Shown here in pieces: positions 1-5,019 of a stretch of 64,000 bases of DNA (position 1 is its first letter; the number at the start of each line of letters is the position of its first letter). Below the pieces are notes generated by a model. That model was not told the DNA's origin. It saw only the letters and a list, made by a program, of their open reading frames with translations, and made no database searches. The position numbers and the translations under genes are program-made. This DNA is from Candidatus Moraniibacteriota bacterium. GTDB lineage: Bacteria; Patescibacteriota; Minisyncoccia; Moranbacterales; UBA1568. The stretch lies in assembly GCA_013336285.1 (NCBI GenBank), contig JAAXTX010000004.1, positions 624-64,623 of the forward strand, given 5' to 3'.

Positions 1-765
1 TCATCATCCGTGCGGCTTTTTGCCTTCCCAATTCTCGAAGTTTCCAGTTTCCGCTTCCGTCATCGTCTACTAAGTCTCGAATATTTGAAAGGGCGATATT
101 GACAGCATTTTTTGTCATTCCGCCATGTCGCTCAACGGATTCCGAGAGCTCTTTTCTGGATAATCTATTTGGGTATTTAGCGTACAAAAGCAAAATAGCC
201 AAGTCTTTTGGGGATAACCCTTTGTGATTTATATACGTTCTGCCATCGATAGTTTCAAAAATCGGGTGCCTTTTTTCCATCAATGATTCAGTTAATGCCA
301 TTACATCTGCATTATCTGGTTGAGTCTGGTTAGAAAAGCGTAGCATCTCTGCTAGCAGCCATGAAATGATCGGCATAACAACGTCCGCATCCATCTTATT
401 TGGATCAAAGTCTTCTGAGTCATGCCTTGTTCCTCTGTTACTAACAATATCGTAAACAAAAGTACATGCTCGAGGCATTGTCAGTCTTAAGACATCGTCA
501 TAGGATGACCCGCTAAGTTGACATAACTCATTAACAATATTGTTAACCTTGAACTGTCTGCTTGGTGGTAGCGTGCCGCCAGTGTAGACTCTTATAGCCT
601 TGAGGAATGATTCAACAAATTTACTGCTCTTAGCTAGCGCACCTTCCCAGTCCTCCTGCTGAAACTTGGTTATTGCCTCAGTAAAGTGGTTTAACAAAGC
701 AGTTACATGAACTGGCGGAAAAACTTTTATTAGGATATCTTTCATTGCCTGAGTCTCTGTCATAC
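1..765 (-). CDS. Hypothetical protein, 5'-complete, 3' end runs off window (island paralog P0; C-terminal winged-helix-like segment)
   Basis: ATG at 763-765 on minus strand; my manual translation runs to the window edge without a stop. Low-GC. C-terminal segment ...LAILLLYAKYPNRLSRKELSESV...GNWKLRELG resembles a wHTH with a wing. No family recognised. Confidence 0.4.
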
Positions 766-771
766 AATTAT

Positions 772-1191
772 CTAGTTAAATATTTTCTGCCAGCTAGGAC
801 GAAGAGAATAGACCCCATTTTTTGACGAGGTAACCCAATCACTTTCTTTTGCCCTAATTGAATAGGCATCATTGTAACTCCCCAAAATTGATTTCATCTT
901 CCCCCAGTCTCTTTCAAGAGCGCTTCTGCTAACACCAACACTCAACTGGCCCTTCGTAGCATGAGCTAAGATAAGAGTAAACTTTTTTTGGCCGCTCATT
1001 CCTTTGCTATGATTCTTTATAAATGCCCTAAGGGGCGTAGAAAAATCAAGGTCCGCAATCTCAGTATTTTTTGCTGGGGTGGATACTCTGGCCTTAGGAA
1101 TATGCTTGTCGGGGACCGATAGGACACTTAGACACTCCTCGGTAAGAATTTGTATCTGTCTAAGGCGCTTAGCGATATTTACTTTGTCCAT
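772..1191 (-). CDS. Hypothetical small protein (island paralog P3)
   Basis: 139-aa ORF in track. 5-bp gap to neighbouring ORFs. Low GC. C-terminal ...TLILAHATKGQ...GVYSLRPSW motif shared with neighbours. Confidence 0.45.
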   Translation of the reverse strand: MDKVNIAKRLRQIQILTEECLSVLSVPDKHIPKARVSTPAKNTEIADLDFSTPLRAFIKNHSKGMSGQKKFTLILAHATKGQLSVGVSRSALERDWGKMKSILGSYNDAYSIRAKESDWVTSSKNGVYSLRPSWQKIFN

Positions 1192-1194
1192 AAG

Positions 1195-1632
1195 TTAGTT
1201 CTTGAGTTTGGCGACTTTCTGAAAGTGATTTTTCACAAATTCTTCTCCCGACGGAGTAAGAGACCAGGTTGTCTTCCCGTCTTTTTTTTCGCTTCCTTCA
1301 TGGATGTGTCCTTTACGAATGCTCATGTTAATTTTGTCGTTGATATTAATGGGAGGTCTTTCTTTTATGGCTTGAAAAGACCTCTCGATATTTGTTTTAT
1401 TAAAAGAAGCCATTCCCTCATGAACCTCAAGAAAGTATCCGATGGCTAGCGTTTTCTGGACATCGCCCTTTGGGTTACATTGGAGTAAGAACTCTTTCAC
1501 TGACATTTTCCGACTAAACGATGATCCTGCGGGGATTGCCTTTTCTTTGGTGATGTCGTTTGGAATACATTTCTCCAGTTTTTTTACGATAGAGAGAATT
1601 TCATCCAGTTTATCCTCAATGGACTTTTCCAT
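1195..1632 (-). CDS. Hypothetical small protein (island paralog P2)
   Basis: 145-aa ORF in track. Contiguous with flanking ORFs. C-terminal ...KTLAIGYFLEV...KTTWSLTPSGEEF wing-like motif. Confidence 0.45.
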   Translation of the reverse strand: MEKSIEDKLDEILSIVKKLEKCIPNDITKEKAIPAGSSFSRKMSVKEFLLQCNPKGDVQKTLAIGYFLEVHEGMASFNKTNIERSFQAIKERPPININDKINMSIRKGHIHEGSEKKDGKTTWSLTPSGEEFVKNHFQKVAKLKN

Positions 1633-1637
1633 AGCGA

Positions 1638-2039
1638 TTAGCTTTTATTCGAATTAGAGCGAGACTCCAGGGATTTTAGTATGTGATCTACTTCGTGAAC
1701 GGGTATTTCATAATTCCCCTTACCAGCCAATAGCCCTATCGCTTTTAATTTCTTTATTGTAGGGTCAACCGTTCCGGACTTCAGTCCAGTTTTAATCACG
1801 ACTTCCTTTCCGGTAATACTGCTTTCTTGCACGGCTCCTTGTCGCTGTAAAAGCTTTTTCACAAGGCCATACGCAAGAATCTTTTCGTCGGCCTTTAAGG
1901 AGACTTCCCTATGATAAACAAGTATGTGCTCGTCTCTCTGAACTGAAATCAGCGGCTTAAGCACAGCCACAACCCGCTCTTCATCAAAAGGGCCGCTGTC
2001 AGTGAAAAGTTCTTCAACTAAAGCCTTTTTAGATTCCAT
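1638..2039 (-). CDS. Hypothetical small protein (island paralog P1), first gene of minus-strand operon
   Basis: 133-aa ORF in track. ...KILAYGLVKKL...GKGNYEIPVH motif. Sits just downstream of a strong sigma70-like promoter. Confidence 0.45.
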   Translation of the reverse strand: MESKKALVEELFTDSGPFDEERVVAVLKPLISVQRDEHILVYHREVSLKADEKILAYGLVKKLLQRQGAVQESSITGKEVVIKTGLKSGTVDPTIKKLKAIGLLAGKGNYEIPVHEVDHILKSLESRSNSNKS

Positions 2040-2090
2040 ATAATGATATTATTAGTTATTTCGGCGGGGCAGGTTCCACGCGTTATCCTG

Positions 2091-2119
2091 AGTCTAGCAG
2101 GCAACGCTCATGATGTCAA
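2091..2119 (-). promoter_or_regulatory. Sigma70-like promoter (TTGACA-17-TAGACT read on minus strand) driving the 4-gene island operon
   Basis: Reverse complement of 2091-2119 reads TTGACA, then 17 nt, then TAGACT. This lies ~50 nt upstream of the ATG at 2039. Confidence 0.45.
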
Positions 2120-2490
2120 GTGAGATTACAAATTCGACTTGTTAATAGAGTAGAAATATAAGATATTGTTTATTATAAAGTAAAAAAAGTGTAAGTATTT
2201 CCAAATGTTTTTATGATAATCATCAGTATAAACAATATAATGCTTTATATAAAGGCAAAATTTGGCAAGTATATATACATAGTTTAATTATAATAGTATA
2301 CATAATTTATATAAATTCATTCCTTATATAAAGTATATTTATTCAAATAATAATATGATATAATAATTAGAAAATTCAGGTTGCTCAAAGGAGGTGTATT
2401 GGCTGCTAAAGTATATATTGCAAACGTGTCAATATACATTTAAGATTTAAGGAAGAAACATGAAAGCAAGAAAGATCTTAAATTCGTAGT

Positions 2491-3414
2491 ATGTCCCTTT
2501 TGCAGAAAATTCAATCTTTAGCTGTTGATTCAAGCTCAGACATTTCTGAATTGTTGAGGCACTGTAAAATTTTGGCTTTTAGGCTTGATAACAACGAGTT
2601 AAAAAAGTGGGTAGACCTTGAGTTGAATGGATATCTCAATGCTGATGAACTTCCGGAATATAGGATCGTTGACGTTTCGACAAGGGGCCATTTTTTTGGC
2701 TCATTTGGTCGTGAGCTAAAGAATGGGGAAATATCGTTGCATTGTATCGAAAAAGAACACCGAAAATATTTAGACAAGGCATATGCGATGCAGCCAATTT
2801 CTGCCTACCTAGCATTAGTAAGGTCGGCTACGGACGGGCAGAATTTTAAAGAATTTTGGCCTGCTGAGCTTGTTGCTATGTATCATGACAAGATGTATGA
2901 GGAGATGTCATGCCTTTCCGCATGGAAAGAAATACCATATTCCTCCCTGGTTGCGCTAATTGATGTAGTACGAAATCGGATTCTTAATTTTGCTCTCGAG
3001 ATTGAAGCCGAAGATTCGAGGGCTGGCGACGTTTCACTTAATGATCTCGGTAGCACATCTCTTACTCCGGAAAAAATTATGAACGTATTCCACAACACTA
3101 TTATCGGAAATGTTGGAAACCTGTCCGAGGGAGGGAGCGACTACTCTCAGAACGCGGCTGTTTATGTGACTGCTGGAGACTTCCAAGCTCTGCACGATCA
3201 ATTGGTTCAATTTGGAATTGAAGAGCAGGACATTCAGGCATTAAATATCGCCATTGAAGAGGACCGCGAGAGTGAAGATAAGGAATCGAGGGCTCTCGGA
3301 AAAAAAGTGAAAGCTTGGATAGCTAAAGTCACTAGCGGACTGAAGCCATTAGCTCAAAATATCTCCGCCGATTTGATAGTAAAAGCTATCCTTATGTATT
3401 ATGGAATTCAATAA
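2491..3414 (+). CDS. Hypothetical protein, possibly abortive-infection (Abi)-like N-terminal domain
   Basis: 307-aa ORF in track, in the low-GC island and divergent from the island operon. The N-terminal pattern LLRHCKILAFRLDNNELKKWVDLELNGY...PEYRIV reminds me of Abi-family N-termini. This is recollection only. Confidence 0.45.
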   Translation: MSLLQKIQSLAVDSSSDISELLRHCKILAFRLDNNELKKWVDLELNGYLNADELPEYRIVDVSTRGHFFGSFGRELKNGEISLHCIEKEHRKYLDKAYAMQPISAYLALVRSATDGQNFKEFWPAELVAMYHDKMYEEMSCLSAWKEIPYSSLVALIDVVRNRILNFALEIEAEDSRAGDVSLNDLGSTSLTPEKIMNVFHNTIIGNVGNLSEGGSDYSQNAAVYVTAGDFQALHDQLVQFGIEEQDIQALNIAIEEDRESEDKESRALGKKVKAWIAKVTSGLKPLAQNISADLIVKAILMYYGIQ

Positions 3415-3472
3415 GCGGTATTTTCCGCTGAGGTTCTTACCGCGTAAACTAGCCAGCTCAGGAAAGCATAAA

Positions 3473-3501
3473 CTCCCCCGCAGAGGGGAGTTTTTGCTTT
3501 T
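3473..3501 (+). terminator. Rho-independent terminator after the 2491..3414 gene
   Basis: Hairpin CTCCCC-CGCAGA-GGGGAG followed by TTTTTGCTTTT. Confidence 0.5.
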
Positions 3502-3513
3502 CCTGGGTAGATA

Positions 3514-4015
3514 GGGAGTCGAACGGGCAGGAACGAGTTGCGATCCGCCAGCTTGCGGAGAGCAAAACGAGTGTAGACGAATGCGAGCAAACGCAGCATT
3601 CGGCTCTGCCCTGGACAACGAGCGCTTTTAAGCGCGAGGACGAAACTCCTGTTACCCGCATCGTAGGTCGTTCGCTTCCTGTGTGTAGCGCCCTGGCTCC
3701 GCGTCGGAGTGCGGAGGACTCCCGTTACCCGAAATCATGAGCGGGAGTCGAACGGGCAGAAGCGATCCGCCGGCTGGCGGAGAGCGTCGATGAATGCGAC
3801 CGAGCAGGGAGCATTCAGCGCTGCCCTGGATAACGAGGTGTCAGTAGACACCGAGGACGAAACTCCCGTTACCCTCCCCCGTCAAATATTGGAGTCGAAC
3901 GGGCAGAAGCGAGTCTTCGAGTGTCGATGAATGCGACCGAAGAGGAAGCATTCAGCGCTGTCCTGGACAACGAAGCGCCAGCAGGCTCTGAGGACGAGAC
4001 TTCCGTTACCCGCTC
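3514..4015. repeat. Tandem array of three ~145-bp GC-rich repeat units, likely structured RNA or regulatory repeats
   Basis: Units begin at about 3514, 3742 and 3891. Shared blocks: GGAGTCGAACGGGCAG, GAATGCGA, AGCATTCAGCGCTGCCCTGGACAACGA and GAGGACGAAACTCCCGTTACCC. An internal hairpin differs in sequence but keeps pairing: GCGCTTTTAAGCGC in one unit, GGTGTCAGTAGACACC in another. Confidence 0.6.
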
Positions 4016-4083
4016 AAAAAGCAAAAAAGAGAATCTATTCGGACCCCCCCCTTTTTTTTGTTCTTGTAATTACGATAAAAAAA

Positions 4084-4116
4084 GCCCGCGCAATAGCTCG
4101 GGCTTTTCATTTTTTA
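4084..4116 (-). terminator. Rho-independent terminator downstream of the S21-like gene (also reads as a terminator on plus)
   Basis: Hairpin GCCCG-CGCAATAGCT-CGGGC flanked by T-runs on both strands. Confidence 0.5.
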
Positions 4117-4263
4117 CCGCTTCGGACCGTGTCCGAGGCGGCGTGCGCGCCGATATTTTCTCAGGGCGCGGCCTCGCTGCTTGTAAAGGCCTGCCTTTTT
4201 AAACGCGCGTTCACCGCGGCCTGTGATGACGCGCAGTTTTCGACATATGTAAACGTTCGGCAT
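4114..4263 (-). CDS. rpsU: Small basic protein, probably 30S ribosomal protein S21
   Basis: GGAGGTG RBS immediately before ATG at 4263. 49 aa: MPNVYI...ERAFKKAGLYKQRGRALRKYRRARR. Compares to S21 MPxVxV...RRFKRxxEKAG. The track ORF 4114..4323 has an unlikely upstream start. Confidence 0.45.
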   Translation of the reverse strand: MPNVYICRKLRVITGRGERAFKKAGLYKQRGRALRKYRRARRLGHGPKR

Positions 4264-4332
4264 GGTCCACCTCCGTTTGGATTGAAGAAGCCACTGATGA
4301 TGGTGTAGCATGACTTTCGTCAAAGAAGTATT

Positions 4333-4361
4333 GACAGTATCTTATAAGTATGCTATACTAT
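4333..4361 (+). promoter_or_regulatory. Sigma70-like promoter TTGACA-17-TATACT upstream of the 3D-domain gene
   Basis: ttgacagtatcttataagtatgctatact, ~70 nt upstream of the ATG at 4432. Confidence 0.5.
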
Positions 4362-4431
4362 ACCGTTGCGACTGAAAAAGATTCGGTCGTAACTCAAGTC
4401 CGGAGGCTTGAATAAAATGTATTCGTAAGAT

Positions 4432-5019
4432 ATGAGTGGTAAACGTTTGGCGTTTGTCGTGACATTGGTGTATATGTCGTGGACAAATGCCGTTTATGCC
4501 GTGGATGGGGTCGCCATTTCCGAATCTGCCGACAATATTGAGATTTCCGTTACCATGCCCCGGGCTCGGCAGGATTACCGTGATTTCCTAATGAGTTATC
4601 TTTTTGGCGCGATACCGAATGCGCGACTGGCCGATGCTCCTGAAAGTAAGACGGAACAAGAAGGGCCTGAGCAGCGGATCTTGGCCAGATGGAAGGATAA
4701 GCAGACGGACCGTTGGAAAGAGCTTCCAACTGAAAAGTTTGAAATAGTCGCTTCCGCTTATACCGCCTCATCGGACGAATGTGGAAAGGCCGATGGAAAA
4801 ACCGCATCGGGTTTGATGGTAACGGCAAACCGTACACTGGCTTGCCCCGCAAACTATCCGTTCGGGGCAAAAATCGCGATTGACGGATATGGTACGTTCA
4901 GATGCGAAGACCGTGGAGGTGCCATACGCGGGAATCGCTTTGATATCTATATGCTGACGAAGAAAGAAGCGTTCGCATTCGGTCGTCGGCGTCTTTTGGC
5001 CGAAGTTGTCGCCGATTAA
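4432..5019 (+). CDS. Secreted 3D-domain protein (MltA/YocH-like cell-wall binding domain)
   Basis: N-terminal signal peptide. C-terminal ASAYTASSDECGK...ACPANYPFG...GYG...CEDRGGAIRGNRFDIY matches the 3D domain pattern. Confidence 0.7.
   Translation: MSGKRLAFVVTLVYMSWTNAVYAVDGVAISESADNIEISVTMPRARQDYRDFLMSYLFGAIPNARLADAPESKTEQEGPEQRILARWKDKQTDRWKELPTEKFEIVASAYTASSDECGKADGKTASGLMVTANRTLACPANYPFGAKIAIDGYGTFRCEDRGGAIRGNRFDIYMLTKKEAFAFGRRRLLAEVVAD

Follow-up and report, generated by a model that had tools for sequence, protein, structure and literature searches.

Attachment (att) sites of integrases in tRNA and transfer-messenger RNA (tmRNA) genes comprise an identity block running from the T loop to the 3' end, and the displaced 3' fragment of the gene is found at the far end of the integrated island. 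Sites of the attC type, found in integrons, conserve their shape and not their internal sequence. In structured RNAs, the gain and loss of modular hairpins beside invariant junctions is typical. An array of GC-rich repeats that invites comparison with these systems occurs in a Candidatus Moraniibacteriota bacterium (GenBank assembly GCA_013336285.1), within a 64,000-nt stretch of contig JAAXTX010000004.1 (positions 624–64,623, forward strand; hereafter the window). A first-pass annotation, made by a model from the letters of the window, had described it as three tandem units of ~145 bp. By appearance, the units belong to a new family, linked to tRNAs, of either structured RNAs or recombination cassettes. 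The preferred reading, with a probability of roughly 40%, is that they may be small structured RNA genes appended to tRNA operons and doubling as integration sites. It is favoured because invariant junctions lie beside covarying stems, hairpins are modular, the + strand is preferred and the units behave like tRNA-type att sites.

Three homologous units lie at the places first claimed (Table 1), and a repeat search recovers every conserved block quoted for them. The block GGAGTCGAACGGGCAG is found exactly at 3515, 3744 and 3891; with ≤3 mismatches it has four matches versus 0.47 expected, the fourth being within a tRNA T-arm. The block GAGGACGAAACTCCCGTTACCC is found at 3636, 3853 and 3990 with ≤2 mismatches (0 expected). 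Mean column identity of the three-unit alignment is 79%, with indels of 7–19 nt. The description as a tandem ~145-bp array holds for the repeats and fails for strict spacing: the units, designated B type, measure 144, 132 and 122 nt with start-to-start distances of 229 and 147 nt, and the extra ~70 nt between units 1 and 2 (3660–3731) are a 5'-truncated copy of a different, related element, designated A type. Because of the indels and this interposed fragment, Tandem Repeats Finder reports nothing for the array.

Searches in Rfam 15 return six tRNAs only for the whole window at gathering thresholds and, at E≤10 for positions 3350–4150, nothing over the units, the only signals being weak terminator-type matches at 4015–4150. 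Neither ARAGORN nor Rfam calls a tRNA at 3400–4100, and ARAGORN finds no tmRNA there. A resemblance to 5S rRNA or tmRNA (CGAAC, GGAUUCGA) was discarded for want of support from either program. No earlier description of the element was found in Rfam or in the searchable literature. Homologous copies do exist. A covariance model built from seven units, then scored on the window and on fetched loci, recovers the window units at 165, 129 and 124 bits (units 2, 3 and 1) and strong copies in loci L020, L033, L036 (two), L044 (two) and L037 (three), with weaker relatives in L039, L040, L042 and L057. In all, 11 further copies occur in eight related loci of Moranbacteria-like genomes of the candidate phyla radiation (CPR). 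They were reached by several routes. A junction-pattern scan of a genome collection gave one true locus (L020, from a Moraniibacteriota metagenome-assembled genome, MAG) besides 25 protein-coding chance matches with an LDNDCDG..EDET motif, and a scan of metagenome contigs gave four true loci (L033 to L036) and one chance match. L037 was the single protein match of a concatenated six-frame translation query, and more loci were obtained by anchoring on homologues of the neighbouring 3D-domain protein. Four patterns scanned against viral contigs yielded chance matches or none and no covariance-model match, and blastn found no copies in phage and plasmid collections.

Compared with L020, L033 and L036, the units of the window are 77–97% identical, their coding flanks only 64–77% (DNA) and the tRNAs 97–99%. 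Unit 2 is 95% identical to the first B unit of L036 and unit 3 is 93% identical to the first B unit of L044, but the two share only 85% with each other. They therefore represent distinct lineages common to several genomes and not recent, decaying local duplicates.

The consensus fold of 11 units, in an alignment fitted to the covariance model, is a three-way junction: helix P1 closes it, P2 forms a long arm that bears hairpins P3 and P4, and P5 forms a short arm. In unit 2, these helices correspond to 3742–3750/3858–3868 (P1), 3754–3759/3821–3826 (P2), 3766–3771/3776–3781 (P3), 3791–3797/3811–3817 (P4) and 3837–3842/3847–3852 (P5). Standard pairs fill 94.6% of the cells versus 82.2% in shuffles, both sides change in 20 of the 36 pairs (reached by 0 of 500 shuffles) and the covariation score is 0.396 versus 0.169. 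When partners are slid by 1–3 columns as a control, pairing is 34–42% and double changes occur in 2–4 pairs. An independent MAFFT/RNAalifold run on seven units leads to the same helices, with 13 covarying pairs. P1 covaries between loci associated with different tRNAs (Gly and Gln, see below). P5 is flanked by N-G-A ... G-A-N' with G·A/A·G mismatches, in which N and N' covary from C–G to G–C. Almost no variation is seen in the junction strands UCGAAC, UGGACAA and GRCGAAA, while the hairpins are modular: P3 varies in length, an additional hairpin follows GAAC (J1/2) in L020 and L044, and P5 is minimal in L037. The + strand is the more stable in 11/11 units, with an alifold energy of −37.3 versus −29.9 kcal/mol, and the most divergent copy keeps the core helices with five G·U and no A·C pairs. 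Hairpins of the A type covary as well (GGAAGC/GCUUCC versus GGAUGC/GCAUCC). Collectively, the fold is strand-specific and selectively maintained and, as in structured noncoding RNAs at large, a secondary structure conserved on one strand carries compensatory changes. The two hairpins quoted as covarying in the first-pass annotation fare differently. The first (GCGCTTTTAAGCGC versus GGTGTCAGTAGACACC) is P5 and truly covaries, with double changes in 6/6 pairs across 11 homologues; the second (CCGCCAGCTTGCGG versus CCGCCGGCTGGCGG) shows two substitutions that add one stem pair and do not compensate each other. The broader claim of a conserved structured noncoding element, as opposed to a decaying duplication, is borne out by the search for further copies and the covariance model that had been proposed as a check, since covariation survives the alignment of these copies.

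In the B units of the window (3766–3781), L020, L036 and L037, P3 consists of TCCGCCAGCTGGCGGA, a palindromic hairpin centred on CAGCTG, which is also found as an apical insertion in an A-type unit (L040, 2085–2112). Its presence in both types suggests a portable mini-hairpin or a putative protein-binding site.

A three-way junction in tandem copies raises the question of a self-cleaving ribozyme array, in which a hammerhead-like junction would cut a multi-unit transcript into monomers. As in the hammerhead, three helices meet, a GUC-type triplet (GUC or UUC) at the end of P1 precedes the junction, CGAAA-A/C is the sequence with which the 3' strand runs into P1, conserved purine-rich junction strands are present and G·A/A·G mismatches lie beside the short helix P5; GAGUC|GAAC and GACGAAAC resemble the cleavage triplet and the GAAA strand. 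Unlike in the hammerhead, the strand between helices I and II reads UGGACAAYGA instead of CUGANGA, and additional residues separate the putative cleavage C (C17) from helix I (GAAC) and P5 from GAA. At E≤10, no match is obtained with any ribozyme model, those of hammerhead, twister, pistol and hatchet included, and UCGAAC is the reverse complement of the tRNA T-loop, so that its conservation may be inherited. Membership of the hammerhead class was rejected on these deviations in strand, spacing and model match, and a self-cleaving ribozyme array appears very unlikely.

Six of the eight related loci (9/11 further copies) have their units immediately downstream of a tRNA gene and, wherever upstream sequence is covered, arrays begin 15–55 nt past a tRNA; the L057 contig ends before reaching any. 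The neighbour is tRNA-Gly(GCC) in five distinct loci and tRNA-Gln(UUG) in one (L037). In the five Gly-type loci, the first unit starts ~43–55 nt after the tRNA, directly past a terminator hairpin. Its 3' arm, (G)ACTCCCGTTACCCGC(T), directly repeats the tRNA sequence between T-loop and discriminator, often followed by the trailer CAAAAG and a hairpin, and its 5' arm, GGGTAACGGGAGTCGAAC, matches tRNA positions 53–70 (18 nt) exactly in reverse complement. In unit 1 of the window, the 5' arm GGGTAG-ATA-GGGAGTCGAAC occupies 3505–3524, the core comes next and the 3' arm ACTCCTGTTACCCGC occupies 3645–3659. In L037, the 5' arms (G)TTGGGGAGGAGGGATTCGAAC of the three B units behind tRNA-Gln are 21–22-nt exact reverse complements of the 3' end of that tRNA and the 3' arms carry its AATCCCTCC, while the core is 84–90% identical to units 1 and 2 of the window. 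Thus, the arms switch with the tRNA and the B core stays the same. Conversely, the Gly arms are common to at least three other cores, namely A (with a 5' arm of only 12 nt), C and a 70-nt 'mini-B'. Since the T stem of tRNA-Gln holds a G·U pair and the 5' arm complements its 3' strand without being identical to its 5' strand, the arm represents an inverted rather than a 'minihelix' copy. For each of the 120 tRNA predictions of the fetched loci (duplicates included), the 400 nt downstream were scanned for inverted copies of 11 nt or more. Such a copy occurs only behind tRNA-Gly(GCC) (13 entries) and tRNA-Gln, with no such match for any other tRNA type or for the Gly entries of L045, L046, L049, L050, L052 and L053. 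Collectively, the ends of the units are templated from the adjacent tRNA, and the units reside behind tRNA genes. In L045, a divergent B-like element (250–355) lies behind tRNA-Gly with a closing helix, CCGAACGG/CCGUUCGG, of an origin other than the tRNA 3' end; the element has either decayed or breaks the arm rule.

The units contain only the last 13–18 nt of the tRNA, once direct and once inverted, and no cloverleaf; neither ARAGORN nor the Rfam tRNA model detects one, and a tRNA gene or pseudogene was rejected. With the tRNA-like or minihelix RNAs that tRNA enzymes process (mascRNA, the bacterial Y RNA YrlA, viral tRNA-like structures) and with sRNAs stemming from the spacers of tRNA operons (3'ETS-leuZ), they share a terminal helix that repeats the sequence of the acceptor and T stems, the trailer of the same tRNA behind it and a location in or after a tRNA operon. 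They differ from such RNAs by the absence of any mimic of T-loop, D-arm or anticodon arm and by the loss of the first two acceptor pairs.

Complementarity to the tRNA is compatible with another function, that of an antisense or guide RNA directed against the tRNA 3' end. Its 18–22-nt 5' arm would pair with the tRNA, its precursor or its gene, and its core would serve as a protein scaffold, with read-through tRNA transcripts being destroyed or processed by way of a long, perfectly paired duplex, or a nuclease or recombinase being directed to the tRNA gene, the landing site of the islands described below. Several guide RNAs are indeed laid out as a 5' match followed by a conserved structured scaffold, and the proposed target coincides with the insertion site of the islands. 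In two divergent B subtypes, complementarity to tRNA-Gln is perfect over 21–22 nt, though the 3' arm of the unit itself covers 9 nt, and in the minimum-energy fold of the co-transcript the tRNA 3' half pairs with the 5' arm of the first unit over 19–22 bp. Against this, the 5' arm in Gly loci is sequestered in P1 by the 3' arm of the same unit, all units of an array carry the same arm, the A-type arm measures only 12 nt and the arrays have no gene for a nuclease or recombinase associated with them. In addition, mature tRNA buries the segment in its acceptor and T stems. A guide function is unlikely on balance.

Islands with defence genes occupy the same sites. In the window, an island extends from position 1 to ~3450–3460 and includes an AbiTii gene (2491–3414; Pfam and PADLOC match), while its open reading frames (ORFs) at 772–1191, 1195–1632 and 1638–2039 (− strand) match neither Pfam nor PADLOC. 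Similarity to relatives restarts inside the tRNA-Gly trailer (~3449–3460), which implies insertion of the island at the 3' end of a tRNA-Gly located upstream of base 1. The island appears to be integrated at the 3' end of tRNA-Gly(GCC), and the tRNA itself, the left end of the island and any integrase lie outside the window. In L051 (~1–4800), an island with SocA_Panacea, DUF4238 and small ORFs (SocA/DUF4238 island) lies at the tRNA-Gly 3' end and is absent from the sister contigs L049 and L050, although all three loci carry the same 3D-domain protein. The tRNA-Gly site is a recurrent hot spot for defence islands in this lineage. A functional tie between the array and AbiTii, with units acting as antitoxin-like repeats, was dismissed because relatives carry arrays without AbiTii.

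The units themselves are targets as well. In L040 (identical in L041), a DRT2-type reverse transcriptase gene (2166–4056, E = 8e-134) lies in a 1950-bp insert flanked by a 60-nt direct repeat (97% identity) that corresponds to the 3' half of an A-type unit, the complete unit being proximal (left) and a 5'-truncated copy distal (right). Integration into the 3' part of a gene for a structured RNA classically leaves such an arrangement: as at tRNA-type att sites, the flanking repeat is the 3' part of the target and the proximal target is restored. The fragment at 3671–3731 of the window begins at the same internal point as the L040 repeat, and truncated units are always 3' halves. The insert contains no integrase; more generally, no integrase Pfam domain was found among the called genes of loci from the protein look-up, nor in those ORFs that were tested over the first 9 kb of the window. 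A group II intron was rejected for L040, its reverse transcriptase being of the DRT2 type and intron RNA domains being absent. Upstream of the reverse transcriptase gene lie ~450 nt of noncoding DNA that may hold its noncoding RNA. The units thus resemble integrase att sites in tRNA and tmRNA genes in that their 3' arms span the tRNA from T-loop to 3' end, the target gene is compact and structured, and islands sit at the tRNA end or the unit 3' half with a duplicated 3' fragment on the flank. They depart from them in not being tRNAs and in adding an inverted copy of the tRNA end and a three-way-junction core of non-tRNA origin. The units are used as island junctions, and it is in part established that they serve as attachment sites for integrative defence islands.

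An integration hot spot strewn with truncated fragments could also have left non-functional debris, i.e. attR remnants and local duplications from repeated islands at tRNA-Gly that slowly decay. The trailing hairpin of the array is degenerate, and unit 3, whose closing helix is weakened (GGAGU/ACUUC with a G·U pair), folds alone no better than shuffled sequence (z-score −0.6). Yet the units are more conserved than the flanking genes, compensatory changes affect 20 pairs, the same core recurs at a different tRNA with matching new arms, and the paralogues are older than the genomes compared. Debris is accordingly disfavoured and is highly improbable.

The strongest rival, possible but not probable, considers the units as folded single-stranded-DNA recombination sites. 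The arms of the top strand would pair and present a duplex copy of the tRNA att core, which a tyrosine recombinase acting in trans would join to the real tRNA 3' end, as for attC or the attP(+) of CTX phage; each insertion would regenerate the core at its 3' end, so that cassettes and islands would build up behind the tRNA, all facing one way. Such a site accounts more naturally for tRNA-matched arms, several cores, turnover and the lack of promoters. Indeed, the arms exactly copy the local att-type segment of the tRNA (T-loop to 3' end) and switch with it, unrelated cores (A, B, C and the mini type) bear the same arms, and the arrays are unidirectional, variable among close relatives and missing in some. 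The truncated units, which are 3' halves without exception, the DRT2 insert with its 60-nt repeats, the defence islands at the same site and the absence of an internal promoter fit equally, and strand-specific folding suits one DNA strand as well as an RNA. Like attC and attP(+) sites, the units are imperfect palindromes in the 60–150-nt range, in one orientation, arrayed by a primary site, with a structure preserved despite changes in sequence and a stem that mimics a duplex target. Unlike them, they lack an integron integrase, gene cassettes between most units (inter-unit spacers are 10–55 nt) and the R/L boxes. Membership of the integron attC class was rejected on the boxes: RYYYAAC ... GTTRRRY boxes are required, and the GTTACCC in the arms GGGTAACGGGAG/CTCCCGTTACCC misfits GTTRRRY, the R''/R' type. 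Sequence conservation at the junction tells further against a DNA site, since the B-core junctions are kept across subtypes and across Gly and Gln loci while the stems covary. The folded stem in L037 has only 9 bp, viral, phage and plasmid collections hold no copies, no integrase gene was seen in the loci examined, and Rfam gives no match at E≤10, although it was not checked whether the copy of Rfam 15 used holds an attC model.

The preferred reading remains that of RNA genes which double as integration sites. The B-type units would be members of a family of ~105–180-nt structured noncoding genes in Moranbacteria-like CPR bacteria, stacked head to tail in tRNA orientation directly behind the last tRNA of an operon. 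Their closing helix P1 joins two copies of the tRNA 3' end (T-loop to acceptor strand), an inverted one in the 5' arm, in reverse complement, and a direct one in the 3' arm. Transcription would come by read-through from the tRNA operon and, in the window, from an upstream island gene; the tRNA-derived helix and tail may let tRNA-maturation enzymes excise and stabilize the RNA, whose conserved junction may bind a protein or ligand. Like tRNA genes, the units would act as attachment sites for integrative defence islands. This role accounts for units that are truncated or shuffled between genomes and, in the window, for an island that directly adjoins the array.

Several observations weigh against this proposal. 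Array content differs between loci, with a single C unit in L042, the series B, A, B and a fragment of C in L044, B followed by A in L033 but A followed by B in L020, B, a fragment of A and two more B units in the window, and no unit at all in L049. Such variation in copy number, order and type among close relatives is reminiscent of mobile cassettes and unusual for a housekeeping RNA. A promoter scan finds no sigma-70-type promoter within the arrays, and every unit is preceded by a long, strong terminator hairpin with a U-tract, so that any expression must come from read-through. Pairs of the G·U type outnumber A·C pairs with only a modest bias (15 versus 8 overall). The 5' arm in L037 matches the tRNA over 21–22 nt and its own 3' arm over 9 nt only, and helix closure thus does not account for the full arm. 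Mimicry of tRNA is incomplete, the first two acceptor pairs of tRNA-Gly not being reproduced. Finally, the sample is small, with ~14 B units from ~6 genomes, all of them MAGs or metagenome contigs. As regards promoters, a near-consensus sigma-70 promoter with an extended −10 (TTGACA-17-TATACT) is seen at 4331–4359 upstream of the 3D-domain gene. It is conserved in L044, where another canonical promoter precedes the tRNA operon; promoters of the canonical kind are thus in use in this CPR lineage.

In a broader and rather unlikely proposal, the units would be cassettes matched to their target within a recombination system anchored on tRNA genes. This counterpart of the integron in CPR bacteria would have arms templated from the tRNA in front, carried on a conserved three-way-junction scaffold. 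The arms, as folded DNA or as RNA, would present or recognize the tRNA 3' end as a landing pad, where small cassettes and defence islands (AbiTii, DRT2, SocA/DUF4238) may be captured and exchanged.

Head-to-tail noncoding repeats beside a defence gene (AbiTii) in a CPR genome also recall arrays of the CRISPR, TIGR and type III antitoxin (ToxI) kinds, from which the units differ by their size (120–180 nt), the lack of spacers and the occurrence of arrays in relatives without any defence gene. A CRISPR array requires 25–40-nt repeats with unique spacers; the contiguous units of 122–144 nt show no repeat–spacer periodicity, in agreement with the initial judgement that this is not CRISPR. TIGR arrays, known from CPR bacteria and phages, combine alternating 8–12-nt edge and loop repeats, 9-nt spacers and an adjacent Tas gene with a Nop domain (PMC12045711); repeat size, periodicity and the lack of a Nop-domain neighbour all exclude the array from this class.

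A protein-coding function was rejected because indels break the reading frames and no protein family was found. The short ORFs across the array had been suspected to be artefacts, rightly so: the indels are not multiples of three, and the only protein found by the six-frame query is a fusion made by a gene caller. In the locus concerned (L037, 9609–10263), tRNA-Gln and the three B units are overlain by a called 131-aa ORF and by the N-terminal end of a 'PEP-utilizers' protein of 587 aa, which is an annotation artefact in public protein sets.

The features of the array region are compiled in Table 1.

Table 1. Array units and adjacent features in the window, with the basis of each assignment
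Feature	Position	Strand	Basis and remarks
Right junction of the upstream island	3449..3462	+	CCAGCTCAGGAAAGC versus CCCGCTCAAAAAAGC; similarity to the tRNA-Gly(GCC) trailer of relatives restarts (alignment with L044 and L036; tRNA-cluster synteny)
Terminator-like hairpin AAAGCATAAACTCCCC / GGGGAGTTTTTGCTTT	3463..3500	+	Inverted repeat; terminator scan; alignment
Unit 1 (B type, 'beta' subtype, long P3)	3505..3659	+	Covariance model 123.9 bits; fold z-score −2.5
A-type unit, 5'-truncated (3' half only), ending in GGAGGACTCCCGTTACCCG	3671..3731	+	96.7% identity to the complete A-type unit of L020
Unit 2 (B type, 'alpha' subtype)	3741..3874	+	Covariance model 165.1 bits; minimum free energy −61.8 kcal/mol, z-score −4.6
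Unit 3 (B type, 'alpha' subtype, P3 a short stub)	3890..4013	+	Covariance model 129 bits, filters off
Degenerate copy of trailer and hairpin CAAAAGGAAGCAAAAGAGGATCCATTCGGGTCCTCTTTTGCTT	4014..4065	+	Comparison with L042 and L044, where it follows units; inverted repeat
Bidirectional terminator hairpin	4080..4107	.	Closes the array region and the convergent small ORF 4114–4263 (−); inverted repeat, weak terminator-type Rfam matches

The hairpin in front of unit 1 is the orthologue of that between tRNA-Gly and the first unit in L044 and L036. At the other end of the array, a C8T8 run (4046–4061) breaks a hairpin that is clean (GAGGATCYATTCGGGTCCTC) in L042 and L044; this may be a real mutation or an error of MAG assembly or sequencing. 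The small ORF at 4114–4263 (− strand) encodes 49 aa rich in Arg and Lys (MPNVYICRKLRV...), with a good ribosome-binding site, and its DNA sequence is conserved in L042 and L044. A search of 5.8 billion proteins returns no homologue, and a 69-aa version with a TTG start (4114–4323) has no Pfam match. The label 'S21-like', given earlier to a neighbouring gene, could not be verified, as no protein homologue is detectable; for the same reason, anchoring on this ORF gave no loci. The 3D-domain protein gene lies at 4432–5019. In relatives, the gene order is rluD, rplS (L19), tRNA-Leu/Val/Phe/Met/Gly(GCC) and the 3D-domain gene, then tRNA-Leu(UAA) and tRNA-Cys on the opposite strand. The window keeps the downstream half of this order and has the island upstream of the array in place of the L19/tRNA cluster.

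If the units are RNAs, they would form a new class of structured RNAs in the candidate phyla radiation, a group that has been little studied, and their closing helix, copied in both directions from the neighbouring tRNA and swapped with it, would be a feature for which no description elsewhere was found. If they act as DNA, they would represent a hairpin-based capture site for defence islands at tRNA genes. Public annotations of these genomes are, in addition, shown to contain spurious ORFs and fused gene calls. Either way, the covariance model, the arms and the island junctions bear on how defence genes are acquired and shuffled in tiny symbiont genomes.

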